From the IMG/VR virus record IMGVR_UViG_3300045988_149348: 42,988 bases of DNA, one strand, 5' to 3'. The notes under the pieces are model-generated. The model made no database searches, was not told the origin of the DNA, and saw only the letters and a program-made list of their open reading frames with translations. Position numbers and translations under genes: made by a program. The stretch comes from a virus. Its lineage: Duplodnaviria > Heunggongvirae > Uroviricota > Caudoviricetes. Shown one piece after another: positions 1,995 through 40,895 of this stretch (its first letter is position 1; each line of letters starts with the position of its first letter).

Positions 1995-3111
1995 CCTCTA
2001 ACCCCGCATACTGGCAATTTATATTTCTCTCTCTGGCGACCTGCGTCTCTCCAACTACAGTAAATACAGGACTTGATATTTCTAATCTTTTAGCCCCGGC
2101 ATTTTTTAAACGTTGAATAATTTCATCTGGATTTATATCTCTTCCCATAACCGAACGTTGCCATTGTTTATACTCATCAAGAGCTTTCTCAACCTCACTT
2201 TGAATTAACGTTGTTCTGTTTTTGTCCGATGAGTTAATCCAGTATTTAATTATTATATCGTATTCAATGCTCTCTGGTTTCTTAACAAGAACTTTATCTG
2301 TGAATGGTCGAATATTAGTTGCAGAGAGAACGCTATTTATCTGCTCTAATAGTTCATCAGAAGGTATATCCCCGTTCTCTAACAAAGAACGGATTTCTAC
2401 AGTTCCGGGCGATGGTGTATATACATTCACATCTTTTATATTCTGATTGGCTGTTCTTGTCCAATATTTATAAGAATCCTCCGGCCCTGCTGTAGACAGT
2501 TTTTCCGGCGACAGTTTTATTCTTTCAGCATAATTATCATCTGACTCTGTATCAGCACCAGAATTAGATGTTGTTAGATTCCTTACGCTGGAAACATACG
2601 GCAACGGAGTCACCAACTCGTTTATTTGCCCAGGTAAAAATCCATTCCCCGATAAGCCAGGTATAACAGCATATCCTGAGACTGTACCAACTGTTTTCCC
2701 AGCTGGTATTTCCAACAAAACATCTGTTTGGAAAATAACACTATTTCCAGTTGAAATTTGAGTGCCAGCAGGTATTGTATATATCCCCGATAATTTTGTT
2801 GACAGATTAAACTCAAATGTAGTCAAGGCAGATTGAGCTTCCAGCCTAGGCGTATCCGTCAGATAGCCTATATGGTCGAGATATTCCCCCCCACCATATG
2901 TAAGAAGGTTTTGTTTTGCAGAAAAATCGATAGCTTTTCTTTGCTGTATAATAATCTCACACAATGACAAGATGAATAATCTACGTGGATCAGCAGGTGC
3001 TAATGTTTCACCTGTTATACTCTCAAAAGCCCTGATTGAACGAGTTGTTATATCAGTCGGGTTAGAATCTGCGAAAGTAATATCTGGCAAACCACCGCGC
3101 GGCAACGTCAT
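1987..3111 (-). CDS. baseplate J-like protein
   Basis: 374 aa, position between the W-like and I-like genes; overlapping start/stop typical of a baseplate operon. Confidence 0.55.
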   Translation of the reverse strand: MTLPRGGLPDITFADSNPTDITTRSIRAFESITGETLAPADPRRLFILSLCEIIIQQRKAIDFSAKQNLLTYGGGEYLDHIGYLTDTPRLEAQSALTTFEFNLSTKLSGIYTIPAGTQISTGNSVIFQTDVLLEIPAGKTVGTVSGYAVIPGLSGNGFLPGQINELVTPLPYVSSVRNLTTSNSGADTESDDNYAERIKLSPEKLSTAGPEDSYKYWTRTANQNIKDVNVYTPSPGTVEIRSLLENGDIPSDELLEQINSVLSATNIRPFTDKVLVKKPESIEYDIIIKYWINSSDKNRTTLIQSEVEKALDEYKQWQRSVMGRDINPDEIIQRLKNAGAKRLEISSPVFTVVGETQVARERNINCQYAGLEDG

Positions 3112-3428
3112 TCTCTAACTCCTATCACAAGTTTTGGCCTAATAAAACCATCAGAAACGTCCGTTCTTTCAAAAGTAACAGAATGGATAATCGCTCTAGG
3201 CTCAAACTCACTAATTTTTTGAATTATTTCTCGTGTTGCTGTAGCAATAAAAATTGGGCTGGGGCTATCAACAAGACTTGAATTAACTCCTAATTTTCTG
3301 GCATATGGTACAGTGCCAATCTGAGTATTAATAATAGTAGAGACATTTTGCAAAACTTCTTCTACAACTGTTTTGGGCGACCAATCAATCGAGTAAGAAG
3401 GTGATGATATGGTAAACGTATTATTCAT
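3108..3428 (-). CDS. baseplate wedge protein, GPW/gp25-like
   Basis: 106 aa, size and position as in P2 gpW / Mu gp46; coupled overlaps with both neighbours. Confidence 0.55.
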   Translation of the reverse strand: MNNTFTISSPSYSIDWSPKTVVEEVLQNVSTIINTQIGTVPYARKLGVNSSLVDSPSPIFIATATREIIQKISEFEPRAIIHSVTFERTDVSDGFIRPKLVIGVRE

Positions 3429-3892
3429 AATAATTTACCTAACGCACTTCTAGTTTTTGACTCTATATTGCCAGCAATATCAACTAATGCTTCTTTCAGA
3501 GAGGTCTGTCCGACTTCCTGTAATTTAATGCCGACGATAATCACTCGTGGATTCCCAGTTGGACCGAAATAAGTCCATGATTCCTCTATATCTGTAATTA
3601 TAAAATTACCAAAATACTGAATACCAATTACAACAGGATTTACTTCCTGAATTGATTGCATTGTCCTAAGTAATGAAAGCGCAGCCAATGGAACAATGCC
3701 AAGTGTTGTATCCAACCGCATATTAAAACTAACTTCATCCAGATCTGGACCTATATCCTCCAGAACAGGTTTAAGCCCAATAACATCATGGCGCGCTACA
3801 CGACGCTTTGACGTCCTTTTAAAATTGTTGAACGTATTCACCACTATTGATGAGGCAACAAAAGGCATTGTACCAAGCATACCCACAATCAT
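3425..3892 (-). CDS. tail/baseplate-associated protein, unassigned
   Basis: 155-aa ORF tightly coupled between the V-like and W-like baseplate genes. Confidence 0.4.
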   Translation of the reverse strand: MIVGMLGTMPFVASSIVVNTFNNFKRTSKRRVARHDVIGLKPVLEDIGPDLDEVSFNMRLDTTLGIVPLAALSLLRTMQSIQEVNPVVIGIQYFGNFIITDIEESWTYFGPTGNPRVIIVGIKLQEVGQTSLKEALVDIAGNIESKTRSALGKLL

Positions 3893-4509
3893 GCCTGAGC
3901 CTCCGTTGTCGGAGCGTATTCCCCCTGAGCTGTGTGATGGTGGCCTTTAGATTTAATCCCATCAACATCTATATCACCACCAACAACCTTAACATCCCCA
4001 GAAATTGTAGCTGCAACACCTCCAGCAGAAGATCCTTTCATTCCACCTTTGAAGGTTAGTAATCCTTCAACTGTAGCATTTCCGGTAATGATGGTTTCTG
4101 GAGCATCAATAGTTACGGTTCCTGTAGCCTTAACGGTTACATCTCCGACAGCATCAACAAGGAGTAAATTAGATTCTCTGTCTACCTCAATACGAGTTCC
4201 GTTATTAAATCTAATGACGCGTTTATTAACAGTATTAGATGGCGGCTTCTGTGTTTCATCATAAAAACTACCAAGAATAAAACCTTGTTGCGGCCCTGCG
4301 GGATGAAAGATACACAAAACTTGCTCACCAATATCTGGCATCCAGTAATCAGCATTCTTATCCGTATTTTTCACAATAACTGATAACTTTGCCGAAGTGA
4401 CGTTATCCTGATCATCGAAAGTAACTCTTGCTGTAACATCACCATCATCAATATCAGAAACAACGCCAACTCTTATAGTCTGACGTAATAATGTTTCTAA
4501 ATCATTCAT
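3889..4509 (-). CDS. baseplate assembly/spike protein V-like
   Basis: 206 aa; the WMPDIGEQVLCIFHPAGPQQGFILGSF motif matches the recalled Phage_base_V pattern. Confidence 0.65.
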   Translation of the reverse strand: MNDLETLLRQTIRVGVVSDIDDGDVTARVTFDDQDNVTSAKLSVIVKNTDKNADYWMPDIGEQVLCIFHPAGPQQGFILGSFYDETQKPPSNTVNKRVIRFNNGTRIEVDRESNLLLVDAVGDVTVKATGTVTIDAPETIITGNATVEGLLTFKGGMKGSSAGGVAATISGDVKVVGGDIDVDGIKSKGHHHTAQGEYAPTTEAQA

Positions 4510-5721: not shown

Positions 5722-8506
5722 AACTTAATCTCCGTTGTTGGAACATATGAGCACTCAATTTCTTCTCAAAATCAGAATATCCCGCATCTAATGCTCTTTT
5801 AGCTGCCGCCTCAGTTTCCTTTGGTGAACCAGCCGGAAGATTGATTACAGGTGAATAGGTTATTCCACCAGTCACAGCATTAACGTTCTGGCGAGGTCCA
5901 GAAGTCCCGGCGGCAGATATCCCGTGAGGTGATAAATTTGATTGCCCGAACTTGGTTGCTATTGCATTCTGTAAGCTGTTATTCCTGCTAACGCCTGATG
6001 CCAGAGTAGTCATTATTGCACCACCTGACTTTGTTAGCTGTGAGAATGGACCTTTTTTCGCGTCAGAGAACGGTAAATACTCACGTACAGAAGAAAAAAC
6101 GCCTTTCACTTCATTAATTAAAGCATTTGCTTTTGATTTTATCCCAGTGATTAACGTCTCAATTATTTTTGCGCCTGACTCACTCCAGTTTATTCCAGAC
6201 AAATAAGCCGTTACAGATTGGAATGCTCTTATAAAGAGTCCAACTGGTGAAAAACGCATAAAAAAAGATACCAGTGTATCTATGATTTTCTTTCCTGTTT
6301 CGCTCCAGTTAATACCAGAAAGGTAATTTGTTGTAAGTTTAAATGCTTTAATTAAGAACGGAAGCGGAGACATCCATTTAAAAGCACTAATTAATGTACT
6401 GTAAATTCTTACTCCTGCCGAACTCCAGTTTATGTTGGAAAGATAATCCCATGCTTTACCAAACATAGATATAATCCATCCATTGAGATCAAAGTTTAAG
6501 ATAAAGTTTTTTATAGCTTCAAACGATTTAACTGTATATTCCTTAACAGAAGGCCAAACTCTGACAGCATAATCTCTGATCTTATCCCAGTTCTGATAGA
6601 GCAATATTCCTGCGGCAACCAGCGCAGATATAGCCATCTGAATCCACCCGAAGGGTGTTAGCTTTGTCGCTACAGATAAAGCCAGCATAGCTACCCTACA
6701 CGCTATAACCACACTTTTCATGGTTAGAAACGCACCTGCCGCCATCACAATCTGAGACACAAAATTGGGGTTGTTAGCTACAAATTCACTAATTTTTGTA
6801 ATCAGAGGAACCAAAACACTAAGCGCGGCATTCAAAGCAGGTTGCAAGGCCTGACCAAAACTTAATGATGCATTGCTAGCCTGAATACGTAATTGTTTCA
6901 ATCGCTCCGCATTGTCTTTCGTTATGTTGGCAAAATCGCGGTCAATAACAGCACTTCCAGCACCAAGAGATGTTGCTTTGATTCTCTGGTATTCCTTCCA
7001 GTTTTGAATCATCGGACGAACAAAGTTCTGAACCTGCATATCGCCAAATAGCTCACCAAGTAACTTCTGATCTCCGTTCTTAGTCATTTTCATGACAGAA
7101 TGCATTGCAGCTTCGAATGGATTCTTCCCTTTTTTCTGCGCTGTTGTGACAATTTTATATAAATCTACACCGAAATTTTTCTTTGCTTTTTTTAGTGTTT
7201 CAGGGGAAAGTATTTTCGCCAAAAAGTTGTTCATATTATTAGCAGCCTCATCCGAAGTTGCAGCACCTTTGCGAGCTATCTGCAAAGCTGCCCCCATCGT
7301 CGCGGCGGCTTCTTTACCTCCCATTTTTAATGCCTGGAACTGGGCACCAAGCACAGGAAGATTTTTGGCCATATCTTTAAATTCAAAGTTTCCCTCTTTC
7401 CCTGCCTGAACCAGAATCCCCATTGCAGACTTCATTTGAGATGGATCAATCTTCAATGAGTCACTTAATGTAAATGATGCTTTCGAGACATCGAGGATAT
7501 CAGAGCCAGTAGCTGTAGCTGTTCGCCCAATAGTTAGTAGATTCGCCTGAGCCTCTTTATAATCCTGCCCAGCAGCGACGAGAAAACCCTGAGCAGCCTG
7601 AATATCAGATGCAAACTGGTTGGTAGCCGTTCCGGTAACAAGCATCGCCTGCCCCATCGCCTGAACTTCTTCCGGCTTCATATCTGCCGTAAGACCAATC
7701 ATTTTGTTTTCACGATTGAAATTTGCTGCATTGTTAGCAGCAGCAAATGCACCAGCCGCTACAGCACCAGTTTGTAATCCTGACCTTACAAGTTGACTCT
7801 TTGCCTCACCAAGATGCTCTCGCTTCAATTCACGCTGCCTTTCCAGAGCGCGGTTTAACTCCTCCTGAGCACGTTTTACTGCAAGAACATTTTTCCGTGC
7901 ATCAGCCAACGCATTTTTATAGCTGTTAATTTTATCAATACGTTGTTTTTCTAATGCCCGGTTAAGTTCCTCCTGCTGTTTTTTCACTTGCTGAACATTT
8001 GCTCTGGCTAAAGCCAAAGCCGTTCTGTAGCGGTTAACCTGCTCAACGCTACGGACCTGAGCCTCACGATTACGATCAATGCTGGCTTTAAGCTCTTTCT
8101 CTCTTGAGGCCAAAGCTCTGGCAGATGTATCAGCTCCCTGATAGGCAGACTTTAAAGCGGCCAGTTCTTCACGCTGAGAACGTAGTGATGCTCGTAAATT
8201 CGATGAATGTGTTTTTGCCTTCTCAAAGTCACGAAGCATCGCTCTGGTTGGATTGGCCGTGTTTTTTATTTGCTTCTGTAACTCTTCAACGCGAGCGGCA
8301 GCTTTATGATATTCGAGGGCAGTCTGTCCAACCTTTACTTTTACAGATTGTAGCTTTTGAATTTCCCCATGTTCTTTCGTTAATCCAGCAAGCTCGGCAT
8401 TTAATTTAGCAACAGCCTGATTAGCTGTAGTAAAACTTTTGGGGAGAGAGGCGGCAACTTTGCCACCAATTTCAAAAGCCAGCTTAAAGTTCTTATTGCT
8501 GGCCAT
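5714..8506 (-). CDS. tail tape measure protein
   Basis: 930 aa; coiled-coil N-terminal half with repeated QEELNRALE(K/R)QR units, hydrophobic central segment, three tandem ~35-aa YLSGINWSE.G.KII repeats; located between the chaperone genes and baseplate genes. Confidence 0.85.
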   Translation of the reverse strand: MASNKNFKLAFEIGGKVAASLPKSFTTANQAVAKLNAELAGLTKEHGEIQKLQSVKVKVGQTALEYHKAAARVEELQKQIKNTANPTRAMLRDFEKAKTHSSNLRASLRSQREELAALKSAYQGADTSARALASREKELKASIDRNREAQVRSVEQVNRYRTALALARANVQQVKKQQEELNRALEKQRIDKINSYKNALADARKNVLAVKRAQEELNRALERQRELKREHLGEAKSQLVRSGLQTGAVAAGAFAAANNAANFNRENKMIGLTADMKPEEVQAMGQAMLVTGTATNQFASDIQAAQGFLVAAGQDYKEAQANLLTIGRTATATGSDILDVSKASFTLSDSLKIDPSQMKSAMGILVQAGKEGNFEFKDMAKNLPVLGAQFQALKMGGKEAAATMGAALQIARKGAATSDEAANNMNNFLAKILSPETLKKAKKNFGVDLYKIVTTAQKKGKNPFEAAMHSVMKMTKNGDQKLLGELFGDMQVQNFVRPMIQNWKEYQRIKATSLGAGSAVIDRDFANITKDNAERLKQLRIQASNASLSFGQALQPALNAALSVLVPLITKISEFVANNPNFVSQIVMAAGAFLTMKSVVIACRVAMLALSVATKLTPFGWIQMAISALVAAGILLYQNWDKIRDYAVRVWPSVKEYTVKSFEAIKNFILNFDLNGWIISMFGKAWDYLSNINWSSAGVRIYSTLISAFKWMSPLPFLIKAFKLTTNYLSGINWSETGKKIIDTLVSFFMRFSPVGLFIRAFQSVTAYLSGINWSESGAKIIETLITGIKSKANALINEVKGVFSSVREYLPFSDAKKGPFSQLTKSGGAIMTTLASGVSRNNSLQNAIATKFGQSNLSPHGISAAGTSGPRQNVNAVTGGITYSPVINLPAGSPKETEAAAKRALDAGYSDFEKKLSAHMFQQRRLSFG

Positions 8507-23092: not shown

Positions 23093-23214
23093 GCCGTTTA
23101 TCCGCTAAAATCCCCTCGCTTGTGCAAGCAAGTGGGCCTCGGTTTGTATCCACGGCACCCTGTGGGTATGAATGACTGTCGTCAGGTCGCAACTGACGGC
23201 GGGTGAGAGTGAAT

Positions 23215-23290
23215 TGGTGGCCCCTACCGGATTTGAACCGATGACCGTGCGATTATGAGTCGCCTGCTCTAACCACTGAGCTAAGGGGCC
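23215..23290 (-). tRNA. tRNA with CAU anticodon (Met or Ile2/lysidine type)
   Basis: 76-nt cloverleaf folded by hand: 7-bp acceptor stem, GCTC/GAGC D stem, anticodon loop CUCAUAA, T loop TTCAAAT, 3' CCA encoded. The 5' 42 nt match E. coli ileX-type tRNA as recalled. Confidence 0.8.
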
Positions 23291-23459
23291 ATATTTGATC
23301 TGTTTGTCTGGTGTGGCGCCGCGCACGAAAATCCCAGCCAATAAATTCAGGATTTTTGGGCGCGGCGGCATATCAGACAAACATGGTTGATGCGTGCGCC
23401 CATGAGAAAAGCGCATAGAATGTTGTAACTATATATTTATATAATTATAGAAATATATA

Positions 23460-23669
23460 TTACTTGGGGCAGTTGATTTCCCATGCCCTGTTATGAGCCA
23501 GAATATCTTTCTTTGTCTGGCGGTCCATAACATCGATATCGTGATCAGTCAGGTAGATGGGCTTTACCCAATCACAGGCGGTATCAACCACCACCGGGAC
23601 GCTTCCACGACTCCCGCAGCTCGCGATCAACATCGTCATCAGCCATATGGTTAACACTCTGCTGTACAT
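23460..23669 (-). CDS. o-spanin, Rz1-like lipoprotein
   Basis: 69 aa with lipobox LIASC; overlaps the 3' end of the Rz-like gene in another frame. Confidence 0.55.
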   Translation of the reverse strand: MYSRVLTIWLMTMLIASCGSRGSVPVVVDTACDWVKPIYLTDHDIDVMDRQTKKDILAHNRAWEINCPK

Positions 23670-25080: not shown

Positions 25081-25110
25081 AAAAAAAAGCCCCGCCGAAA
25101 AAGGCAGGGC
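25081..25110 (-). terminator. rho-independent terminator immediately upstream of the holin gene
   Basis: Minus strand: GCCCTGCC-TTTTTC-GGCGGGGC hairpin followed by eight U residues; ends 15 nt before the holin start codon. Confidence 0.7.
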
Positions 25111-25452
25111 TTCATAAAGCAACAAATTACGCGGTAATCGCTTAACGCAGTTTTACTACGTTAAATGAAACACTACACCCAGTTACCACCTAAAACAAGG
25201 TTTCCCCATAAAAAAACCTTCATATCGTGGTTAATCGATCAATAAAAAAGCAATGTTCAACTTTTTACCAACCGAACATCCCGACCAGGACTTCCATAAT
25301 ATTCGCCGATATGCCACTGCTTAAGTTGAGTAATCTTCTCCAACTTAACTCCCATAGAGTCCAGTTTCTGCCATGTTTTCGGTTGTATGTGCTTCATTAC
25401 CCGCTCTGAATATCTGAATACTGCTCGTAAGCGCATGGCTTCTCACTACAGC

Positions 25453-25878
25453 TTATATATGTTCACGACTGGACTTCCAGAATATCCACGCCAGATCAAC
25501 ATTCTGGTCTTGGTAATTCATCCCTTCGTTGGCACGAAGCAATAATGTTTCATGGTTTTTATCACCCGCATGAAACCTGACAAGTGCTTCGAACTTTTCG
25601 CGCCCATCATCCGGCACTACCGCCGTTGGCGGCGCGGAGAATAGAGGTTTAGGTGATATTTCCGCACGTTTTGCGTATGCTTCAACTGTGTCAGGGTTAA
25701 ACAGGATTATGTTTTCACCGCATTCCCACGCTACCGGCTCTGCTTCCAGCGATGCCAGCGCGATACGAAACACATTGGCAAGCAGGCTGCTTGAAGATTG
25801 GTTATCGTGCGCCGGGTCGCTCAGGAAACCAGTGATGAATGATTTAATTTCCGCGTTTTCTCTGGTAATAGTGGTCAT
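25453..25878 (-). CDS. hypothetical protein
   Basis: 141-aa ORF, last gene of the accessory block. Confidence 0.4.
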   Translation of the reverse strand: MTTITRENAEIKSFITGFLSDPAHDNQSSSSLLANVFRIALASLEAEPVAWECGENIILFNPDTVEAYAKRAEISPKPLFSAPPTAVVPDDGREKFEALVRFHAGDKNHETLLLRANEGMNYQDQNVDLAWIFWKSSREHI

Positions 25879-26390
25879 GCCGCGTATCCTTCTTTCTTAT
25901 TAACAATTACACCGTCATATATTTCATTAAGGTGCCCTCTCAACTCCATGCGCCTTAATGCAGATAACATGTAATCGCATTCAACCTGCTTATTCCCAGT
26001 AAATGGCTTATCGTCAGGATTACCCCAACAGCAATTACCCTTGGGCCACCCATGTACTTTCCGTACTCTTCCGTTAACAACGTGAAGCAATCCCCAGCCA
26101 GGCGGTAAATCCTCAACTGAAATAATTCCCGGCTCACTAATAAAGAATCGCCAGTCGCCCATTCCAAGAGACGGATTTTTACGGAAACGCTTTTTTCTAT
26201 CTGCCAACAAGTCAGCACGAGAACACTTCGCCTCTATCAAGCATGATGCTGAATTTCTGAATCCCATAGCATCTGGCTGTTCTCCGGTACTGGTTACAGC
26301 TATAAAGCGGTCATGAAAGCAAACCTTGAACCCGTTGCGCTTAAGGAACTTGTACGCAATCTGACAGAGTTCGCGGTGTGTTAACGCCAT
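25875..26390 (-). CDS. putative PD-(D/E)xK-fold nuclease-like protein
   Basis: 171 aa from ATG 26390 (AAGGAG upstream); D...CLIEAKC arrangement resembles a D-ExK catalytic motif; assignment tentative. Confidence 0.4.
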   Translation of the reverse strand: MALTHRELCQIAYKFLKRNGFKVCFHDRFIAVTSTGEQPDAMGFRNSASCLIEAKCSRADLLADRKKRFRKNPSLGMGDWRFFISEPGIISVEDLPPGWGLLHVVNGRVRKVHGWPKGNCCWGNPDDKPFTGNKQVECDYMLSALRRMELRGHLNEIYDGVIVNKKEGYAA

Positions 26391-26575
26391 CTCACTCTCC
26401 TTTAGTGCGCAGATAACAGTGGTTTTTCCAGCGGTTTTGCGCCGCGCTACGCTTATCTTTGACTCCCTCTCTGGCAATTCCAGAATATAAGTACAACACC
26501 ACACGGCGATTGCTAACTCTCAACCACTGGCTGGGATAGCAACGTCTGTATACACGGGAAATAAGCATCTTTGCT

Positions 26576-26863
26576 TTACGGTTTTTCATCGTTTGCCCCC
26601 TGCTTTTCTGCCCTTAACACCATGCGAGAACCATCATCCAGCTCCCAATTGATTTCACCGCCTTCTGCCATGACAAGATGCCAAACGAGTTGTGCGGCCT
26701 CGTTGGTTACATCACGACCGCGATCATTGCCTACACGGCGTTTTGTTCCGTCACCTAAATCGCGCATTTTGGCCAACACGATGGTTTTTGATAGCGGTGA
26801 AAAACCAAGCTGTAGCCGTGCGGAATTACTCACTGGTTGCCCCCTGAATACGTTTAAACTCAA
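26576..26863 (-). CDS. hypothetical small protein
   Basis: ORF track only; start uncertain. Confidence 0.3.
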   Translation of the reverse strand: MSLNVFRGQPVSNSARLQLGFSPLSKTIVLAKMRDLGDGTKRRVGNDRGRDVTNEAAQLVWHLVMAEGGEINWELDDGSRMVLRAEKQGANDEKP

Positions 26864-28167: not shown

Positions 28168-28244
28168 TGTCGAGGCGTCCTTATACATTTATATAAATAT
28201 ATAATTCTATATACGGCGGGAGACATCCCGCCGTAGGCTTACTG

Positions 28245-29312
28245 TCAGGCTTTCAATAGCGATTCTTTCAGATATCGGGCATCAGCCAGGGCGTTTGGAG
28301 TAATCTTGCGAACCCATGCATTACGGGTTGGACTCCACTTAAAGGCGCGTGATTTAAGCAGCGAACGAATGTTTGCCTCTGGTTTGCCAGGGAAATAAAA
28401 CAGGATGCGGTTATCCTCTGGATCTATCTCCATAGAAAAGCCGTCGTATTCTTCGCGCTGTGCTCCTGTTACAGACTTGACCGATTCAAGCTCCTTAATA
28501 CGGCTCTGTAGTCGTTTGATTTCGGCGTTATTGTTGCTCAGTGCGTATGAAGGGAATCCGATGCGCCCACAGAAATCTCCGGCCAGTAACTCTTTGGCTT
28601 CGCTTTCTGTAAACCTGAGATCGATTAATGCAGAAAGCTGCTGTAATTGGTCTTTTTTGTATTTGCGAATGGCCTTATTTGCGGCCTTCATTTTGACGTG
28701 TGACTTCATGCAGCCTTGCAGCTTACGAAGCAACTTAAATAGCGCATCAGGATCATCAGACGAAATTCCATTACGACCAACACCTGCGGCTTTGCTCTCG
28801 TAGTGTGATGCTTTACTTTCGCATTCAACAAAGGCTTTTCTGAATAACGCATCAGCTTTAGACAAACGGCGGCGATGGCCTTTCGCGCTATAATGGTCAA
28901 CTAAAATCGGCTGGCCTAACGGGATCACATCCAACAGGTCATGCGCTCGCTTATGCGCTACCGCACCTTCTTTTCTGGCTTTTTCTGCACGAGCAACATA
29001 TCGGGCAAGACGCGCGTTCTGGCGTTCCTGATAGGTGTTTACGTAATCATCTCCGCGCTGCTGCTGTTCAAGCCATGCTTTGCGCAGATCTTCTGTTACG
29101 TCCACCAGCTCCGCAGGGATACAACCAGTTTGGGCTTCATAAGAGTAACCATCCTCATAGATACGCCCATCGTCTTCAACAAAGAAAAAGGTTTCGTGCT
29201 CATCGCTTTTGACCATACGACCATTAACATGGCGTAATAGGTAGCCAGTATCAGTGCTTAACAGGCTGTTAGGGTTGTTGATCCAGTCAGAAATAATTAC
29301 TTGTTTATTCAT
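28245..29312 (-). CDS. hypothetical protein (possibly DUF3560-like)
   Basis: 355-aa ORF, first gene after the Q-like gene; GGAG ribosome-binding site; preceded by copy A of the shared ~100-bp leader. Family assignment from memory only. Confidence 0.5.
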   Translation of the reverse strand: MNKQVIISDWINNPNSLLSTDTGYLLRHVNGRMVKSDEHETFFFVEDDGRIYEDGYSYEAQTGCIPAELVDVTEDLRKAWLEQQQRGDDYVNTYQERQNARLARYVARAEKARKEGAVAHKRAHDLLDVIPLGQPILVDHYSAKGHRRRLSKADALFRKAFVECESKASHYESKAAGVGRNGISSDDPDALFKLLRKLQGCMKSHVKMKAANKAIRKYKKDQLQQLSALIDLRFTESEAKELLAGDFCGRIGFPSYALSNNNAEIKRLQSRIKELESVKSVTGAQREEYDGFSMEIDPEDNRILFYFPGKPEANIRSLLKSRAFKWSPTRNAWVRKITPNALADARYLKESLLKA

Positions 29313-29318
29313 CAGATT

Positions 29319-29420
29319 TCTCCGGTTTAACCAGGGCGGGTATCGCTCGGTTTCGGGTATAACCTTAGGAAATTTTTTCCCACCTGTAAAGCACTTTTTA
29401 TATAAATCTATAATTATATA
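29319..29420 (-). promoter_or_regulatory. duplicated ~100-bp promoter/leader module, copy A (candidate Q-dependent late promoter region)
   Basis: Near-identical to 38909..39021 (3 differences seen by eye); sits between the Q-like stop codon and the next start codon; contains TTTACA-17-TAAGGT and an AT-rich 20-mer. Confidence 0.55.
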
Positions 29421-29481
29421 TTTATAGATTTTCGATGTTCCCGATGTCTACACACCATCAAAACAGCTCAAAATGACACTT

Positions 29482-29859
29482 TCACTCTCTTCTCTTTTTC
29501 AAATAGTCGACAACATACGCCCTGGCTTTTGCCAGCTTCCGGCGATACTGTCTGAGACTAAGAGAAAGGGCGTGGGCTTTATCAATATGCGGTGCATTTA
29601 TGTCGAGGCCCCGAATCTCCCACGCCCCGTATTCAATTCGGACAACCAGCGCCGCAGTCTCATCAACTACCGTGAGGGCCGTCACCGCTCCCTCGATACT
29701 GGTTTCCAGTGAGTCATTTGGTGCGCCGCCCCCTCCGGTAAACTGGCAACGCGTAACCATCATCATTTCTAACATCGACGCGAAACCGCTACGGGCGTTG
29801 CAGCCATTGCGCACCCACAGCGCCCATAGCTCAAACAAGCTATCCAGATCGCGTCTCAC
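29482..29859 (-). CDS. antitermination protein Q-like
   Basis: 125 aa; LFELWALWVRNG and EYGAW motifs resemble the 82/21-type Phage_antitermQ family as recalled; promoter-like repeat directly downstream. Confidence 0.55.
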   Translation of the reverse strand: MRRDLDSLFELWALWVRNGCNARSGFASMLEMMMVTRCQFTGGGGAPNDSLETSIEGAVTALTVVDETAALVVRIEYGAWEIRGLDINAPHIDKAHALSLSLRQYRRKLAKARAYVVDYLKKRRE

Positions 29860-31850: not shown

Positions 31851-31865
31851 ACCACGATATGTGGT
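31851..31865. promoter_or_regulatory. operator, ACCAC-N5-GTGGT family (ACCACGATATGTGGT), Cro-side
   Basis: Perfect 15-bp inverted repeat in the cro leader; imperfect neighbour ACCACATATCGTGAG at 31872..31886 falls in the spacer of a TTGAAA-17-TTTAAT promoter on the minus strand. Confidence 0.6.
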
Positions 31866-31953
31866 ATTAAAACCACATATCGTGAGTTTTTCAATGGGCG
31901 AAACAAAAAATAACCTTCTATTTGTGGTCCACCTCTCGTCTTACCATGTGAAA

Positions 31954-31968
31954 ACCACTAAATGTGGT
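31954..31968. promoter_or_regulatory. operator, ACCAC-N5-GTGGT family (ACCACTAAATGTGGT), repressor-side
   Basis: Perfect inverted repeat just upstream of a TATAAA -10-like hexamer (31973..31978) and the CI-like gene start. Confidence 0.6.
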
Positions 31969-32005
31969 AATGTATAAATAACCCACCATTCACGATTGAT
32001 GAGAC

Positions 32006-32662
32006 ATGAAAAGCAACGACGAGAACATCAAGAAAGAAATAGGTCTGCGCATTCAGACTCTACGGAAACAATCCGGCATGACTGCCGGAGATCTCCAGCA
32101 AGTCACTGGAATAGGCTTAAGCACCTTGCAGAACTATGAGGCCGGATTAAGACAACCATCTATACCTGCCATCAAGAAAATCGCGCACGCCCTGAAAGCA
32201 TCAGCGCCTTATATCGCGTGCTTAACAGATAACCCGTTCCCACCCCAGAATACTAACGCTCCTGTTATTCCTGGGCTTGTAGCTATAAAAAATGACATAG
32301 CATCGCACGCCGGAGAAAAGCCAGTGCTGGCGATAGAACAGGAGATTCTACGAAGCAAGAACATCAACCCATCGTCTCTGTCAGTTCTCCAGAGCAACGA
32401 TGAGTTAATGTCACCAACAATATCCCCTGGCTCCCAAGTCCTGATTAATACAGACGATACAGAGATTCATGAGGGGATCTATGCCCTTGAAGACAGAAAT
32501 GGCCTGGTTGTTTTGAGGCACTGTAGAGTCATACCGGGTGACAATGCTGTTATGCTGTCAACCGAAAGGGATGCTGAAATGAACACTAAGCATCTGAATA
32601 ACGAGGAATTTAAGCGTTATAAAGTTCTTGGCCGCGTAGTTAGTGTTGTCAACTGGTTATGA
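32006..32662 (+). CDS. CI-like repressor (HTH_XRE N-domain + LexA/S24-like C-domain)
   Basis: 218 aa; N-terminal helix-turn-helix (LQQVTGIGLSTLQNYEAG); C-terminal ELMSPTISPGSQVLIN aligns by eye with the S24 GDSMxPxIxxGDxVLVD motif. Confidence 0.7.
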   Translation: MKSNDENIKKEIGLRIQTLRKQSGMTAGDLQQVTGIGLSTLQNYEAGLRQPSIPAIKKIAHALKASAPYIACLTDNPFPPQNTNAPVIPGLVAIKNDIASHAGEKPVLAIEQEILRSKNINPSSLSVLQSNDELMSPTISPGSQVLINTDDTEIHEGIYALEDRNGLVVLRHCRVIPGDNAVMLSTERDAEMNTKHLNNEEFKRYKVLGRVVSVVNWL

Positions 32663-33129: not shown

Positions 33130-33264
33130 CTGCAAGCGGGCTAACGCCCGCTTATATGATTATAGATTTATATAATTATATAAAACGCTTTCCATCCGCC
33201 AAAAAGTTGGTTATGCTTACCTCGTTCTATAAATATAGATTTATAGAATTATATAACCAAACAC

Positions 33265-33933
33265 ATGGAGTCTCGACAAATGACTATCTCTGTAGGTATT
33301 TTCAACGGAAAAGGCGGCGTAACCAAATCAACAATTGCCCGTGCTTTAGCAGTTGCTTATGCAAAGGCTGGCTGGAATGTATGCCTGATCGATATGGATG
33401 TGCTTAACGGAACGGTAACGCGTTGGGTACAACGCAGAATGGCCAACAATATCGAACCAGCAATCGCGGCGCAGCCGTGCGGCACACCATCACAAGTCCA
33501 GAAAATCATCGAATCAGAAGTATACGACCTGGTTATCGTTGATGGCGGTGCCTACGCATCTGAATCAGTACCGAAGCTATCTGAATTTCTGGATATGGTT
33601 ATTTTGCCAACCCGATTCTCTACCGATGACCTGGAAACCACCGTTAACACTGCTCACGGCATCGTTAAAAAGGGTGTGCCAATCAAGAAAATTTGCATGG
33701 TGTTTTCCGGCGCGGCTGAAAATGAAGCTGACTATATTGAAGCCCAAGAGTACCTGGCTAATACGCCATACTTTGTTGTCGATAAGTACATTCCCCACAA
33801 GCCAGCTCTGAGCAAAGCTCAGGATAAGGGCTTAAGCCTCATTGAATGCTCATACGTTGCGCCACGCAAAAAGGCAGACGACGTTATTCAGGGGATTATC
33901 AACCAGCTTGAGGCTCTGACTACTGCCGCGTAA
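33265..33933 (+). CDS. ParA-family partition ATPase (small, type Ib-like)
   Basis: 222 aa; deviant Walker A GKGGVTKST near the N-terminus; followed by a small ribbon-helix-helix-like gene; AT-rich repeats upstream. Confidence 0.7.
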   Translation: MESRQMTISVGIFNGKGGVTKSTIARALAVAYAKAGWNVCLIDMDVLNGTVTRWVQRRMANNIEPAIAAQPCGTPSQVQKIIESEVYDLVIVDGGAYASESVPKLSEFLDMVILPTRFSTDDLETTVNTAHGIVKKGVPIKKICMVFSGAAENEADYIEAQEYLANTPYFVVDKYIPHKPALSKAQDKGLSLIECSYVAPRKKADDVIQGIINQLEALTTAA

Positions 33934-33976
33934 TATATAATTATAGTTTTATAGATTTATATAAGAGGGGATACAC

Positions 33977-34446: not shown

Positions 34447-34469
34447 TAAAAAAGGCCCCCGAAGGGGCC
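34447..34469 (-). terminator. rho-independent terminator (minus-strand orientation)
   Basis: GGCCCC-CGAA-GGGGCC hairpin with an A-run on the plus side, giving a U-run on the minus strand after the small peptide ORF. Confidence 0.55.
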
Positions 34470-34475
34470 TAATCG

Positions 34476-34598
34476 CTACTTGCTGCTAATGTTTATCGTC
34501 ACATTCAGAGCGTTATCAGTAATCTTCCAACCCTCCCCATGTGGCGTAAACAAAGCTCCAGTAACAACGATAAAAATACACATGTAGTATTTTTTCAT
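34476..34598 (-). CDS. small hydrophobic peptide (40 aa), candidate membrane peptide
   Basis: MKKYYMCIFIVVTGALF...; AAGGG 8 nt upstream of ATG 34598; own terminator downstream. Low confidence. Confidence 0.3.
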   Translation of the reverse strand: MKKYYMCIFIVVTGALFTPHGEGWKITDNALNVTINISSK

Positions 34599-34976
34599 TG
34601 TGTGGCCCTTACAGGCCGTTTCACGGCATCCCCACCGACGAAAATGACGCGAGAGCAAGCACGCTGTTTGTGCCTGCGTGGTACGGCAAGTGGATAATCC
34701 TTTCCTGAAAGTCGGTGCCCGGTTGCGAATCGGCGAAAAGGCCCCGCGTAATGTTACACCGCAGCCCCTTCATAATGAAGGGATAAAAATGTATTGTTTT
34801 TCATTAGGTTAAATACACACCACAAAAATCACTCGCTTTTGTGCTCTAATAAACCAAATTTATTTGGACAATTTTATTCAGTTGGGTAAGAATATGGTTG
34901 CTGTTTGTGCTTGCGTGGTTGTATTTATACAACAACGTAATGCTGAAAGGACCGCGAATCCGATCAGCACGAAAGA

Positions 34977-35737: not shown

Positions 35738-35839
35738 TAAATGCGCCATTGGTGGACACTTTCCGAGCCGTAGCAAAATCTACGGTCGGGATTGGAACCC
35801 CGTAGACACAATGGCGCATACCGCGTTAGCGGTTTTTTT
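35738..35839 (+). ncRNA. candidate c4-like antisense regulatory RNA with intrinsic terminator
   Basis: Structured ~100-nt region: GCGCCATTG...CAATGGCGC long-range stem, CCGTAG/CTACGG inner stem, then ACCGC-GTTA-GCGGT plus UUUUUUU terminator (35820..35839). 35789..35817 is complementary in two blocks (CATTGTGTC, GTTCCAA) to 35917..35941 in the downstream leader. Confidence 0.5.
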
Positions 35840-36005
35840 ATGCGTAAAGCACTGCTACACCCAAATTATGGTGGGGCGTGCGGGGGAGTCGTAAGACTCG
35901 CCGGTTCGTCATTGTGTCCGGTAGTTCCAACCCTGCACGTCTCACCACCCAATGATTGGAACCTGACGGTGGTGAGTATCCTTAACCTTTAAGGGAATCA
36001 TCACA

Positions 36006-36197
36006 ATGACAAACCTACCCCATGACTATTACGTCAACCTCGTAAAGATCCTTCTCAAGAAAGCCTCATACGCCGATAAAGTCCGCCTGGCTGAAATCAT
36101 CGAGCGCGAAGCTATGCGCATCGCCAGCAACGATAACGCTGTTTCTGACGCAAAAATCTCCCTCGTAACCAAAGTAGTTATGGGAGGTGCAAAATGA
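36006..36197 (+). CDS. icd-like small ORF, translationally coupled to the antirepressor gene
   Basis: 63-aa ORF whose TGA stop overlaps the ATG of the next gene (ATGA); AAGGG ribosome-binding site lies in a CCTTAA/TTAAGG hairpin. Confidence 0.5.
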   Translation: MTNLPHDYYVNLVKILLKKASYADKVRLAEIIEREAMRIASNDNAVSDAKISLVTKVVMGGAK

Positions 36198-37375
36198 AAA
36201 CGCTTCCGATCGTTAACACCCTACAGCCTATCCTGCATAACCAGATCCCCGTTATCACTACTGAACTACTGGCAAAGCTATACGGCACAGACGTTGATAA
36301 CATCAAAAAAAATTACTCACGTAACGCAACCCGCTTTATTGAAGGAAAGCATTTTTTCAAAGTGGCTGGCGATGAGTTAAAAACTTTGCGAGTGACTTTA
36401 AGTCACTCACAAAATTTGCGACTAGTTTTAAACGAGTCACAAAATGAAGTGCAAATTTCCCCCAAGACTCGCTCTCTCATCCTCTGGACAGAACGCGGGG
36501 CTGCACGTCATGCCAAAATGCTTGAAACTAACCAAGCGTGGGATGTATTCGAACGGCTGGAAGACTGCTATTTCAGCCAGAACGCGCAAACGGCCGCGAC
36601 CGTAACCGTCTCGCCAAACAATGCTCGTGAGGTTGTCGATACGCTCAACGCCAAACCGATGTTTTACATTAAAGTGTGCAACAACGAGCCACTCACAACC
36701 TCAGCCGATGTTGCCCAGGCATTCAGCACCACAAACAATTCCATCGTTATGGCCATCGATGCGCTACGCATTCCTCGCACGGCTGCGGCGCGTCACTTCT
36801 TTAAAGAGCAACGACCGTTGGAAGGAAGCGACCGCGAAATAACAATCTATCGCATGACAAAAGACGGATTTACCTTGCTCATGGAGAGCATCGACGGTCC
36901 AGGCGTGAAAGATATCAAGCTGGCCTACATTGAAGCCTTTAACGCTATCAGCAGCGTGTTAAAAACACAGTACGAGCGTGATCTGGCTAAACGACTGTAC
37001 CAGGAAAAAACGATTATCCGCGCGGCAACAGAGCATAATCGGCTATTAACGGAACCGAACTACAGGAAGGAACTAATCAAGGAGTTTGACAAGGCAACAG
37101 GGAAAACCAAAGCGGCGCTAAATCTGCCAGCAATGACTCAGGAAAATGTGATATCAGCCTTACTTCTTGATCTGCTCAGAAACGCCAGAGCACTTATCAG
37201 CTTTGACGAAAACCTGAATCCTCAGCTCAAGCTACTACCACCGACAGGCAAAGTAGTCGACCAGGCTGATCACAACAGCATACTCAGCGTACTGGATGCA
37301 AACCTGCCAGCCAGGACACTACAGGATCTGATAAAAACATGTGCTGATAAGCTGGCACAGAAAAGCAGACCATAA
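36194..37375 (+). CDS. antirepressor-like protein (ORF6N/KilA-N-like N-domain + Rha-like domain)
   Basis: 393 aa; N-terminal ITTELLAKLYGTDVDNIKKNYSRNATRF (ORF6N-like) and central PLTTSADVAQAFSTTNNSIVMAIDAL (Rha-like), as recalled; GGGAGG ribosome-binding site. Confidence 0.6.
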   Translation: MKTLPIVNTLQPILHNQIPVITTELLAKLYGTDVDNIKKNYSRNATRFIEGKHFFKVAGDELKTLRVTLSHSQNLRLVLNESQNEVQISPKTRSLILWTERGAARHAKMLETNQAWDVFERLEDCYFSQNAQTAATVTVSPNNAREVVDTLNAKPMFYIKVCNNEPLTTSADVAQAFSTTNNSIVMAIDALRIPRTAAARHFFKEQRPLEGSDREITIYRMTKDGFTLLMESIDGPGVKDIKLAYIEAFNAISSVLKTQYERDLAKRLYQEKTIIRAATEHNRLLTEPNYRKELIKEFDKATGKTKAALNLPAMTQENVISALLLDLLRNARALISFDENLNPQLKLLPPTGKVVDQADHNSILSVLDANLPARTLQDLIKTCADKLAQKSRP

Positions 37376-37399: not shown

Positions 37400-38112
37400 T
37401 CTTTTCTCTCTTATCAACGCCAGAGACTTTCTGAAAATCCTTTCGAATAGCGTCAGCATCACGCGCCAAGCCCATACTGGAATGCGTCGCCATATGACGA
37501 AAATGATCAACTGCCGGAAACAAAGAAATAATGGACCCAATAGCTTGCAGCAAACTCGCTTTTCTACGCATCATAATTCCACCATAACCGATAACCACCC
37601 TTCAGACACAACCCCCCCTCCCCCCATACAGGGTGCCCTTTACCGGAGTTCCGGCCCCTTCTCAAAAGCATCAAAAAAAGCTCGAGATCGAGTACCGGAA
37701 CTCATGCCACCAGATAGCTCCACATCGTTTCCAATGCTTCGCCGCCGTGTGCGCCCTGTGGCCCACAATCATGCCATTGGTCGTCTGATATACCTTCTTC
37801 TGCTCATAGAGCACAGGCGAGTTGTCGCACTCCTGCCTTTCTCAGACTCGACTTAGTTTAGATCGCTGTTCCTGGCTTGCGTCAGCACACTTTCCCCTTG
37901 TACGCATACCCGCGCGCCACTTCGCCCAAAAACACCGAACCCAACGAAGTGGCAAAGACAACGACGCGAGCGTGAGTCTGAAATGGGCACCAGTAAAAAA
38001 GGGGTTGCAGGCGCAAAAAGATTTGATTATCTTTAGACGCAAGAAAGCCGCCCCAATCAAGAGGTGTCTTTTTAAATCCAGCCTACCAAGCAAGATTTAA
38101 ATTTCAGACTGA

Positions 38113-38137
38113 AAACCGCCCGGCAAGGCGGTTTTTG
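38113..38137. terminator. bidirectional rho-independent terminator
   Basis: ACCGCC-CGGCAA-GGCGGT hairpin flanked by AAAA on one side and TTTTT on the other; downstream of the minus-strand operon 38901..38185. Confidence 0.6.
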
Positions 38138-38184: not shown

Positions 38185-38457
38185 TCATTTGATCCCTTGT
38201 TCCAATTCTGACGACACTTTAACCTTTTCCCATACAAGGGTTTGCAGCCTTAACAGAATCGCATCTTTATCAAGGTGTGAAAGATCCTTAACCATATCGT
38301 CAAACGACAGAACGCGAATGGCCATCTCAATGACCCTCGGCGGCTCCCCCTTCTCATATCGCTTATATGTAGCCAACGATATCCCAAATTCTTCGGCGGC
38401 TCGCTCCTGCGTCCAGTTCATCCCACGACGCCATAATTTCAATTCATAACCCGTCAT
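38185..38457 (-). CDS. Cro/C1-type helix-turn-helix DNA-binding protein
   Basis: 90 aa from ATG 38457 (GAGGAGG upstream); WTQERAAEEFGISLATYKRYE helix-turn-helix. Confidence 0.55.
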   Translation of the reverse strand: MTGYELKLWRRGMNWTQERAAEEFGISLATYKRYEKGEPPRVIEMAIRVLSFDDMVKDLSHLDKDAILLRLQTLVWEKVKVSSELEQGIK

Positions 38458-38520
38458 AGCATCCTCCTCGCACAATATTAACACTCGCAAAGTGTCAAAA
38501 TGACACTTTGCGCATTGTGT

Positions 38521-38901
38521 TTACTTAACGAGGAATAAAAATGGTTTATTGTTCGGCGGTGTAATCGGGGCTGGCTCGCTTTTGCTCATGCGGTCAGTGT
38601 ACCAGGCCAGCTCCTTGTCAAAGTAAGCCTGATTAAAATAGGCCATGAATGTGGTTTCAAATCCATAACGACCGCTAATACGCAGCATCTGATTGCCGTT
38701 CTCTGTTTCCAGATATACCAGGGCACGCTCCTGATTCTCCTTCAGCCAGGTTAAAGCCTCATCGCACGAGGACACACGATACTCATCATCGTAGCCGTCA
38801 TCGATGCGGCTTGAAGAAGAACGGCAAATCACGCCAACAGAACCAGCCAGGATAGTTTGAATTTTAAGGAAAGCGTTTTTGCGGATTTTAATCATGCTCA
38901 T
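38521..38901 (-). CDS. hypothetical protein driven by copy B of the duplicated leader
   Basis: 126-aa ORF; 5' region identical to that of 28245..29312 up to the ribosome-binding site. Confidence 0.45.
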   Translation of the reverse strand: MSMIKIRKNAFLKIQTILAGSVGVICRSSSSRIDDGYDDEYRVSSCDEALTWLKENQERALVYLETENGNQMLRISGRYGFETTFMAYFNQAYFDKELAWYTDRMSKSEPAPITPPNNKPFLFLVK

Positions 38902-38908
38902 CGGGTTA

Positions 38909-39021
38909 TCTCCGGTTTAACCAGGGCGGGTATCGCTCGGTTTCGGGTATAACCATAGGAAATTTTTTCCCACCTGTAAAGAACCTTTTTATATAAATCT
39001 ATAATTATATAACTCTATGAG
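38909..39021 (-). promoter_or_regulatory. duplicated ~100-bp promoter/leader module, copy B
   Basis: Near-identical to 29319..29420, including the TATAAATCTATAATTATATA 20-mer. Confidence 0.55.
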
Positions 39022-39065
39022 CACAAAAAAGCCCCTTTGCAACAGGGGCTTATCATTCGTTCTGA

Positions 39066-40543: not shown

Positions 40544-40895
40544 TTATTATATCTACGATGGTAGGAAATCTTTTCCTATGTGGCAATAGAAATTTACTAC
40601 ATTGCGTATAAGACAAGTTTTCTATGTCTAATAGGAAATGATGTTTCTTACGTTTTATCGCGTTCTGATGGCTACTGTGTGCGTATTTATCGACGTTTAT
40701 TGATAAGGCTCGCTCCTTCCTCCTGCAAAGCCCGGCCGTAGGCCTTATTTCGGCCTTATATAAATTGATTTTGTATAGTTCGAAACGCGCCGTTTCGAAA
40801 AGGATGATCAGGCTGCTCCATGCCTCCGGCAAGTGCCGGAGGAGGTATATTTGAGCGTAGCGATTCGAACCGGCGCGAGCTTTAGCTCGCTGCAA

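Follow-up and report, generated by a model that had tools for sequence, protein, structure and literature searches.

The DNA analysed here, called the window throughout (42,988 nucleotides (nt) in all), is the virus record IMGVR_UViG_3300045988_149348 of the Caudoviricetes, and our subject is a promoter and leader module of about 100 bp that lies in it twice, in front of unrelated genes. The upstream part of this module is an array of AT-rich 8-bp repeats, and arrays of the same kind surround the partition gene parA of the element, which suggests that the module is under the control of a partition protein. The first-pass annotation had reported both copies and regarded them as Q-dependent late promoters. 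The duplication was confirmed by pairwise alignment and by repeat search: positions 29319-29399 and 38909-38989 align over 81 nt with 96% identity, and the similarity runs on through the AT-rich block to about 29420 and 39012, respectively. Module probes of 27 and 36 nt each gave two exact matches in the window and none in 100 shuffles. The functional strand of both copies is the minus strand, and their full extents are about 29310-29430 (copy A) and 38899-39020 (copy B). The features of the two copies, with positions on the window, are the following.

28245-29312, minus strand: gene of module A, encoding a 355-aa DUF3560 protein with a C-terminus that is weakly primase-like by PHROG
29310-29312, minus strand: ATG start codon of the DUF3560 gene
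29313-29361, minus strand: leader of module A, with the hairpin AACCG-A-GCG-AUACC-CGC-CC-UGGUU at 29329-29352 and the stretch AAACCGGAGA, in which the Shine-Dalgarno (SD) sequence GGAG lies at 29320-29323
29362-29390, minus strand: core promoter of module A, with -35 TTTACA at 29385-29390, a 17-nt spacer and -10 TAAGGT at 29362-29367
29366-29382, minus strand: spacer palindrome of module A, TGGGA-N7-TCCTA
29396-29429, minus strand: array of module A, four contiguous 8-bp AT subsites TCTATAAA TATATAAT TATAGATT TATATAAA, matching four tandem units of TTATATAA at 27/32 positions and ending 7 nt before the -35 hexamer
38185-38901, minus strand: operon of module B, a 126-aa protein (38521-38901) and a 90-aa helix-turn-helix (HTH) protein of the HTH_3 family (38185-38457)
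38899-38901, minus strand: ATG start codon of the 126-aa gene
38902-38951, minus strand: leader of module B, with the hairpin at 38919-38942 and the SD sequence GGAG at 38910-38913
38952-38980, minus strand: core promoter of module B, with -35 TTTACA at 38975-38980, the palindrome at 38956-38972 and -10 TATGGT at 38952-38957
38986-39020, minus strand: array of module B, 8-bp AT subsites ending in TATATAAT TATAGATT TATATAAA, directly past the HigA terminator

The layout described earlier (AT block, TTTACA, 17 nt, -10 hexamer, 50-nt leader, GGAG and ATG) holds for both copies, except that the -10 hexamer TAAGGT belongs to copy A only and is TATGGT in copy B. Between the AT-rich repeats and the -35 hexamer, copy A reads AAAGTGC and copy B AAAGGTTC. 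Different, unrelated operons stand under common cis elements, as had been claimed: copy A serves the DUF3560 gene, and copy B serves the two genes of its operon, which is enclosed by a terminator upstream (39029-39051) and another downstream (38110-38137). PADLOC assigned none of the cassette-driven genes to a defence system. Between the 126-aa gene and the HTH gene there is a perfect palindrome with 12-bp arms (CGCAAAGTGTCA TTT TGACACTTTGCG, 38486-38512), which may serve the HTH protein as an operator or form an attenuator hairpin. Three things had been overlooked, namely a third copy of the module in relatives, the membership of the AT-rich 20-mer in a set of seven arrays, and a partition locus with the same arrays.

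The window is about 99% identical, as the reverse complement, to the Yersinia phage vB_YpM_41 (a circular record of 49,128 bp), and also about 99% identical to non-mobilizable E. coli plasmids of about 48 kb. The module was found in 65 plasmids of PLSDB, of which 62 are non-mobilizable and about 48 kb in size; most are from Escherichia, including the plasmid of strain ATCC 25922, and a few are from Salmonella or Klebsiella. The annotation of the ATCC 25922 plasmid contains a RepA initiator, ParA, a RelE/HigB toxin-antitoxin pair and myovirus structural genes, and no integrase. Judged by this combination of RepA, ParA and structural genes on plasmids of about 48 kb lacking an integrase, the element is a phage-plasmid, i.e., a virus of about 48 kb that also lives as a plasmid. 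The third copy of the module (copy C) is present in nearly all relatives, where it follows a gene for an MT-A70 methylase, and it sits inside a segment of about 3 kb (43172-46142 of relative L001) that is missing from the window. Compared with vB_YpM_41 and the ATCC 25922 plasmid, this segment, holding the methylase gene, copy C and several small genes, is gone at 23202/23203, and the junction lies directly after a tRNA gene (23218-23290). Another 1.4 kb or so (25430-26842), between the DUF3560 operon and the lysis cassette, could not be aligned with vB_YpM_41, which suggests a mosaic replacement in that gene block. A literature search found no publication on the phages vB_YpM_39/41/44, their plasmid group or the cassette, and the exact leader 26-mer had no match in the GTDB genome collection. 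The pSLy3 phage-plasmid group was considered as a relative and set aside, since it belongs to the SSU5 supercommunity and was taken as a different group.

Nine cassette copies from the E. coli/Yersinia, Salmonella and Serratia lineages were aligned over their full length (alignment A7). The -35 and -10 hexamers, of the sigma-70 type, are in register at 17-nt spacing in 9/9 copies, and those of Serratia are nearer to the consensus (TTGCAA-17-TAATAT), which bears out the earlier reading of the module as a promoter and leader. This conservation of register is the best evidence for a promoter, because a plain consensus scan was uninformative: it yielded 13 hits against 19.8 expected from shuffles, and scored copy A at 8/12 and copy B at 9/12. 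The palindrome T(A/G)GGA-N7-TCCTA in the spacer is invariant; it begins 2 nt past the -35 hexamer and overlaps the -10 hexamer, whose first two bases are the final TA of the palindrome. The leader hairpin consists of an outer stem of 4-5 bp, an internal loop, an inner stem of 3 bp and a pentaloop. In the alignment 91% of its cells are paired, compared with 16-39% for slid partners, and in Serratia two outer pairs are GC instead of AU, both partners having changed; this covariation is only modest evidence, because a single lineage split lies behind it. Folding of single leader sequences gave weak z-scores (-1.3 to -1.9), and the case for the hairpin is taken from the cross-lineage alignment instead. 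The SD-containing stretch is conserved and invariant bar one base in one Serratia copy. The leader region (29250-29480) matched no Rfam 15 family at E<=1, and a scan of the whole window at the gathering threshold returned only ryfA, C4, isrK and one tRNA. Four contiguous subsites upstream of the -35 hexamer were found in modules A and B, in the third copy of the relatives and in three Serratia modules, which have a unit of their own. A fourth promoter of the same class is present in the window.

40558-40586, minus strand: promoter TTGCCA-CA-TAGGAAAAGATTTCC-TACCAT, with the palindrome TAGGA-N7-TCCTA at 40562-40578, and neither array nor hairpin leader

This promoter lies upstream of a 99-aa open reading frame (ORF) downstream of repA and has a Serratia counterpart at 16265-16299 of L011. 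The parA promoters of the window and of Serratia lack the palindrome, and it is the spacer palindrome that defines the promoter class. Its invariance argues for a second dimeric DNA-binding regulator of this class, which would read the palindrome, and the leader hairpin would most likely act on mRNA stability or translation.

The AT-rich block of the module belongs to a dispersed set. Repeat search and a scan for TATA clusters located 8-bp-phased repeats (TTATATAA, TTATAGAT and their complements), nearly pure A/T in composition, at seven places in the window, all of them intergenic. Exactly seven loci match four tandem units of TTATATAA at 26/32 positions or more, whereas in 200 first-order Markov simulations the clusters at the lower threshold of 24/32 or more numbered 0.01 on average. 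Besides the arrays of modules A and B, the set and the partition genes among which most of the others lie are as follows.

23421-23468, minus strand: array past the lysis cassette, with the tRNA gene about 130 nt downstream
28173-28212, minus strand: array directly before the ribosome-binding site (RBS) of a 100-aa winged-helix (MarR-like) gene, after a hairpin past the DUF3560 gene
33152-33264, plus strand: parA promoter between two arrays (33152-33183 and 33225-33264), with -35 TTTCCA at 33189-33194 and -10 TATGCT at 33212-33217
33280-33933, plus strand: ParA-type deviant Walker ATPase of 217 aa (mechanical ORF start at 33265)
33933-33972, plus strand: array between parA and the 82-aa gene, directly upstream of the RBS of the latter; the same position is filled in the conjugative plasmid L004
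33977-34225, plus strand: 82-aa candidate centromere- and operator-binding protein, with a flexible basic N-terminal tail and a predicted ribbon-helix-helix (RHH) domain (residues about 41-80)

The array at 28173-28212 together with AAGGACGCCTCGACAATG resembles the translation start region of parA, and it has a Serratia counterpart before the Lar gene. This points to a second repeated unit, in which an array is followed by AAGGA(N2)CCTCGACA(A)ATG; it is seen in the window at 28173-28190 and 33257-33282 and in Serratia at 6250-6303 of L010. The start region of parA itself (GGAGTCTCGACAAATG) recurs before the MarR-like gene of the window and the Lar gene of Serratia.

The ATPase matched Pfam CbiA (1.7e-12) and ParA (2.7e-9) and the ParA-like PHROG (2e-39), and contains the motif GKGGVTKS. 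It is a distant ParA/MinD-type protein whose size falls within the small class (about 200-220 aa) without an N-terminal DNA-binding domain, and the nearest solved partition ATPase is ParF (4dzz, a weak match at E 3e-4). The 82-aa protein has no Pfam match of its own. Its family, for which 62 representatives were collected at E<=0.001 and 46 of these aligned, spans 74-90 aa and shows a conserved basic N-terminal motif, KPPKK.NTKG.PP, and a strand-helix-helix pattern at the C-terminus. AlphaFold2 run on the family alignment gave a predicted local distance difference test (pLDDT) above 90 for residues 41-80, which form an extended segment and two helices (47-59 and 64-80), and low confidence for residues 1-40. 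The top matches of this model to the PDB by Foldseek were almost all RHH proteins (StnY, CdbA, the CopA antitoxin, ParG 1p94, CopG and Arc), with a root-mean-square deviation (rmsd) of 1-2 A over about 42 columns, a target-normalised template-modelling (TM) score up to 0.87 and E values of 0.4 or higher. Pfam RHH_10 was matched by 16 of the 46 family members, and the family profile reached E 0.88 against ParG; these statistics are weak because the domain has only about 40 aa. From the model we predict the 82-aa protein to be of the RHH type, as ParG and omega are. In its gene order, gene sizes and repeat arrays the par locus agrees with a type Ib partition system, and it would consist of ParA, the predicted RHH protein and the arrays.

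Relatives with diverged proteins also carry arrays at parA. On the conjugative cfr plasmid NZ_CP037908.1 (L004 in the list above), ParA is 45% and the small protein 39% identical to those of the window, and AT-rich 8-bp arrays immediately precede parA and also lie between it and the small gene. At 2868-4112 of this plasmid there is also a HigB gene 100% identical to that of the window, with a module array and -35 hexamer cut by the end of IS26 (GGCACTGTTGCAAA); the identical HigB and the cut module piece speak for a recent exchange of the cassette between phage-plasmid and resistance plasmid. A Logan contig from another phage-plasmid, with an IncFII RepA and a small protein 48% identical, shows a hairpin, an array, a promoter and an array before parA, and a third array past the small gene, with units ATACATAA/ATATGTAT. 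The Serratia element pJSRIV006_2 is a siphovirus-type phage-plasmid with a RepA/ParA/early region in common with the window. Its arrays, of TTTAAATA-type units, are found at the parA promoter, in three homologues of the module cassette and just ahead of a Lar gene; a Serratia 16-mer probe matched 25 times, at six places and with one weak outlier in addition, compared with 0.54 matches by chance. The array-promoter layout at parA is common to these three relatives, and the array unit is, as far as these genomes go, switched as a set genome-wide, being always of the same type as the parA arrays of that genome. Such switching as a set is what one diverging DNA-binding protein would produce, and the retention of the arrays at parA, even on a plasmid without phage genes, points to the partition protein.

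Alternatively, the arrays could be a generic UP element, curved DNA or a target of H-NS, Fis or IHF, and the copies could be constitutive promoters of morons without a dedicated regulator. Their nearly pure A/T composition agrees with this, as does the enclosure of the copy B operon by terminators, which is typical of morons; the A-run AAAAAGTGC beside the -35 hexamer moreover resembles the proximal UP subsite of the Estrem et al. consensus. Against this, the arrays keep a strict 8-bp phasing and have a defined unit, which changes between lineages as a set at all sites of a genome (TTATATAA, TTTAAATA and ATACATAA types). Three arrays, two in the window and one in Serratia, abut an RBS with no space for a promoter, and arrays flank the parA promoter on both sides like type Ib operators. 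We therefore give this explanation little credence.

The copies of the module within a genome appear not to have evolved independently. A common set of 8 or more substitutions sets all three Salmonella copies apart from those of the E. coli type, so that paralogues are closer to each other than orthologues, which points to gene conversion or repeated spread. Such concerted evolution, which the alignment indicates, says nothing by itself about function, and the copies might mainly be recombination substrates or scars, homogenised by gene conversion, with shared regulation only incidental. This view can also call on the HigB gene and cassette fragment beside IS26 on an unrelated conjugative plasmid, on the presence or absence of the 3-kb segment with copy C among close relatives, and on the Ref-type recombination nuclease that the element encodes. 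The end points of the indels do not, however, lie at module copies, and the four-part anatomy is kept across lineages in which the flanking genes differ. Gene conversion also leaves unexplained the hexamer spacing, the palindrome, the compensatory changes in the hairpin and the match between the arrays and those of parA, and it is quite improbable that recombination is the main role of the copies.

The Q-dependence proposed in the first-pass annotation started from the gene next to copy A.

29482-29859, minus strand: 125-aa Q-like gene upstream of module A, with a weak Q21-like or sigma region 4-like fold

Copy A does adjoin this gene, lying 55 nt past its stop codon, and a DUF1064/resolvase-like gene precedes the Q-like gene, an order like that of rusA and quuD in DLP12. 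Under this hypothesis a 125-aa antiterminator of the Q21 type would load on RNA polymerase at each cassette and cause read-through into the lysis and structural genes. The 125-aa protein resembles Q21 weakly. In Foldseek searches with its AlphaFold2 model (predicted TM score 0.68), Q21 structures (6p18_Q, 6p1a and 6jny) came first, with a probability up to 0.9; the E values were 0.23-1, the TM scores 0.45-0.53 and the rmsd 8-10 A, and region 4 of sigma factors, which matched about as well, and extracytoplasmic function (ECF) sigma factors came next. Alignment to the QuuD-family profile by hhalign covered 101 columns, including an N-terminal RD.-LE.W..W motif, at E 0.017 and a probability of 2.7%. 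No Pfam Q family was matched at E<0.01, and PF06530 was found in 1/20 homologues at E 0.074; the fold statistics are weak. The Vibrio phage VP882 was examined as a studied relative of the 125-aa protein and rejected, since its Q is a different protein of 256 aa and two neighbouring ORFs are dissimilar.

The Q-binding element (QBE) of lambda lies between -35 and -10, as the spacer palindrome does here; the latter is, however, an inverted and not a direct repeat. The features that define a Q-dependent promoter were taken as described for Q21 (bioRxiv 10.1101/651190). According to the same work, the target of Q21 is a pair of directly repeated 8-bp subsites, so that the Q-like protein is formally a candidate binder of the arrays as well. 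The leader contains no conserved pause element of the expected kind (-10-like, A2 and T6); the best candidate reads GATACC in the E. coli type (without the T), GATAGT in Salmonella and CATACC in Serratia. No terminator occurs in the 50 nt between the -10 hexamer and the coding start of copies A and B, and the first canonical one past copy A is 4.2 kb off; copy B is followed by two genes and then by the terminator of its operon, and copy C, which lies ahead of packaging genes, is missing from the window. The pairing of the Q-like gene with the module is not conserved either: an extra gene lies between them in Salmonella, the Logan relative has only 38 nt past the Q-like gene and no module, the next annotated gene overlaps the Q-like gene in Vibrio phage VPHZ6, and in Serratia the nearest module is about 390 nt downstream, past another small gene. 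The 8-bp arrays flank parA, and they occur on the conjugative plasmid, whereas the 80 plasmid records with a match to the Q-like protein do not include it and are all typed as non-mobilizable. Antitermination from the cassettes is therefore unlikely, and the Q-dependence claimed earlier finds no support.

A gap of 340 nt before the holin gene (25086-25453, minus strand) ends in a strong intrinsic terminator at 25086-25113 (11-bp stem, T9). This terminator has no obvious promoter of its own, which would agree with late read-through; a lambda-like PR' was sought in the gap upstream of it, and no sigma-70-like promoter was found. The gap also holds a half-site like the CI operator (AACCACGATATG). 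Several ACCAC..GTGGT palindromes, presumably operators of the CI-like repressor, lie in the divergent region (31853-31990) between the repressor gene (32006-32662) and the early operon, where there is also an inverted repeat with 13-bp arms (31853-31884). Operators of this type were considered as regulators of the cassettes and rejected: they are confined to the cI/early divergent region and absent from the cassettes. This suggests that the cassettes are probably free of direct control by the prophage repressor, which would fit expression in the plasmid state.

We thus regard as the probable reading, with moderate confidence, that the repeated element is a portable four-part promoter cassette controlled by the partition protein in the manner of the omega regulon. 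It draws on the anatomy and conservation of the cassette, on the arrays that it has in common with parA, on the switching of the unit throughout each lineage and on the predicted RHH fold, all obtained by sequence analysis, and from these and from known systems we infer the binder of the arrays, the direction of regulation and the centromere activity. Several points weigh against it. The consensus scan yields fewer hits than shuffles, and copy A scores only 8/12. The assignment of the RHH fold depends on a model together with weak sequence and fold statistics. Arrays in the Logan relative occur at the par locus only, within the 14.6 kb available, and dispersal is therefore not universal. The co-variation of unit and lineage would also fit another diverged DNA-binding protein of the shared early region, and the exclusion of the Q-like protein as the binder leans on one conjugative plasmid. 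The small protein of that plasmid is only 39% identical, yet its arrays are similar, so that specificity does not simply track sequence. Finally, AT-rich DNA before the -35 hexamer could work as an UP element without a specific protein.

If control by the partition protein is assumed, dimers of the 82-aa protein would coat each array, one dimer per 8-bp subsite, after the examples of ParG and omega. At parA, the coating would lead to autoregulation and to formation of the partition complex. In the cassettes, the occupied array would lie at about -38 to -70 and modulate the promoter; to judge from omega and ParG, the effect would most likely be feedback repression in the plasmid state. The accessory operons (DUF3560, the 126-aa and HTH genes, and the third one in relatives) would thereby be tied to the level of the partition protein, and the cassettes would supply additional dispersed centromere-like sites. 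The arrays beside RBSs or past hairpins (28173-28212, 33933-33972 and 23421-23468) may, as a matter of speculation, be extra centromere-like sites or roadblocks. A more ambitious scheme, which we offer only tentatively and hold to be rather doubtful in its entirety, would make the RHH partition protein a genome-wide regulator and roadblock that, by means of the arrays at promoters, just ahead of RBSs and past hairpins, couples segregation and copy state to accessory and phage genes, with a self-propagating three-part cassette (array, palindrome-spacer promoter and hairpin leader) that spreads and is homogenised, and with a second regulator that reads the palindrome.

Some further features of the window concern other regulatory and structural genes. 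A P1-type immI region lies on the plus strand at 35767-37375. It begins with isrK (35767-35839) and the C4 antisense RNA (35864-35952), both recognised by Rfam, and continues with a 63-aa ORF (36006-36197) and a 393-aa antirepressor of the Ant/Rha-like type (36194-37375), so a CI-type repressor and a C4/Ant antirepressor circuit seem to occur together in the element. Just past the partition genes, on the minus strand, there is a full-length match to the ryfA family of small RNAs (34448-34746, 136.6 bits, E 5e-35). Direct repeats occur in long coding regions, at 415-807 (three of 93 nt, spaced 132-168 nt) and at 6165-6449 (three of 45 nt, spaced 120 nt), and probably reflect structural proteins with repeated domains.

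A phage-plasmid has to combine its maintenance as a plasmid with its development as a phage, and to our knowledge the crosstalk between the two programmes is known in detail for very few such elements (P1 and N15). The family described here is common, comprising E. coli plasmids of about 48 kb, including that of the reference strain ATCC 25922, further plasmids in Salmonella and Klebsiella, and Yersinia phage isolates. If control by the partition protein is true, it would provide a simple and testable circuit linking segregation to the expression of accessory genes and possibly of lytic genes, it would extend the idea of the partition protein as a global regulator, known from omega and KorB, to Gram-negative phage-plasmids, and it would define an unannotated family of centromere-binding proteins of about 80 aa with lineage-specific 8-bp sites. 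The cassette could also find use as a genetic part, namely a compact regulated promoter. Should the arrays be inert, what is left is a duplicated promoter kept alike by gene conversion.

Among known systems, the PR'-qut arrangement of lambdoid phages with Q21 is similar in that a promoter lies shortly past a weakly Q21-like gene, itself after a resolvase-like gene, and that a strong terminator precedes the lysis genes. It differs from the arrangement here, in which the promoter is present in several copies, has neither a conserved pause element nor a promoter-proximal terminator, is not constantly adjacent to the Q-like gene and has upstream repeats in common with parA. The IR sites of phage-plasmid N15 (inverted repeats bound by SopB) lie near phage promoters, and KorB of plasmid RK2 is a global repressor with 12 operators. 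SopB and KorB thus resemble the present case as partition proteins with several binding sites scattered over the replicon; they are, however, large HTH ParB proteins of type Ia acting on single palindromes, whereas the candidate here is a small RHH protein with tandem arrays. Four dispersed SopB sites (IR1-4) have been described in N15 (PMC7205306). ParG of plasmid TP228 binds boxes at 8-bp periodicity (a 4-bp box and a 4-bp AT spacer) in direct or inverted orientation, one dimer per box, and represses parFG (PMC3130281). The ParF-ParG-parH/OF system is like ours in this periodicity, in ParF being the nearest solved ATPase and in ParG being among the fold matches of the 82-aa protein. It differs in that all 20 boxes form one block upstream of parF, while the arrays here are at 7-8 places, in that the units of the window are without the ACTC core, and in that the proteins of the window match ParF and ParG marginally (E 3e-4 and E 0.88).

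In pSM19035, omega binds parS arrays made up of 7-10 contiguous 7-bp repeats; these arrays extend over three promoters, and a minimum of 4 contiguous repeats is required (PMC9499535). This type Ib delta/omega regulon of a Streptococcus plasmid has a small RHH protein with a flexible N-terminal tail, arrays in which at least four short repeats of either orientation adjoin and each takes up one dimer (as proposed here), and arrays at the promoters of several operons in addition to par, which link partition with other plasmid functions (PMC9499535). The repeat of pSM19035 is the 7-bp WATCACW, whereas that of the window is 8 bp long and AT-only and belongs to a Gram-negative phage-plasmid, where the promoters are copies of one portable cassette with a spacer palindrome and a hairpin leader. 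Omega and the 82-aa protein have no detectable sequence similarity. The regulation of several promoters by a partition protein is already known from omega, from the dispersed sites of N15 and from KorB; what appears to be new here is the Gram-negative phage-plasmid host, an unannotated family of predicted RHH proteins, AT-only units of 8 bp and promoters that would be copies of one portable four-part cassette.

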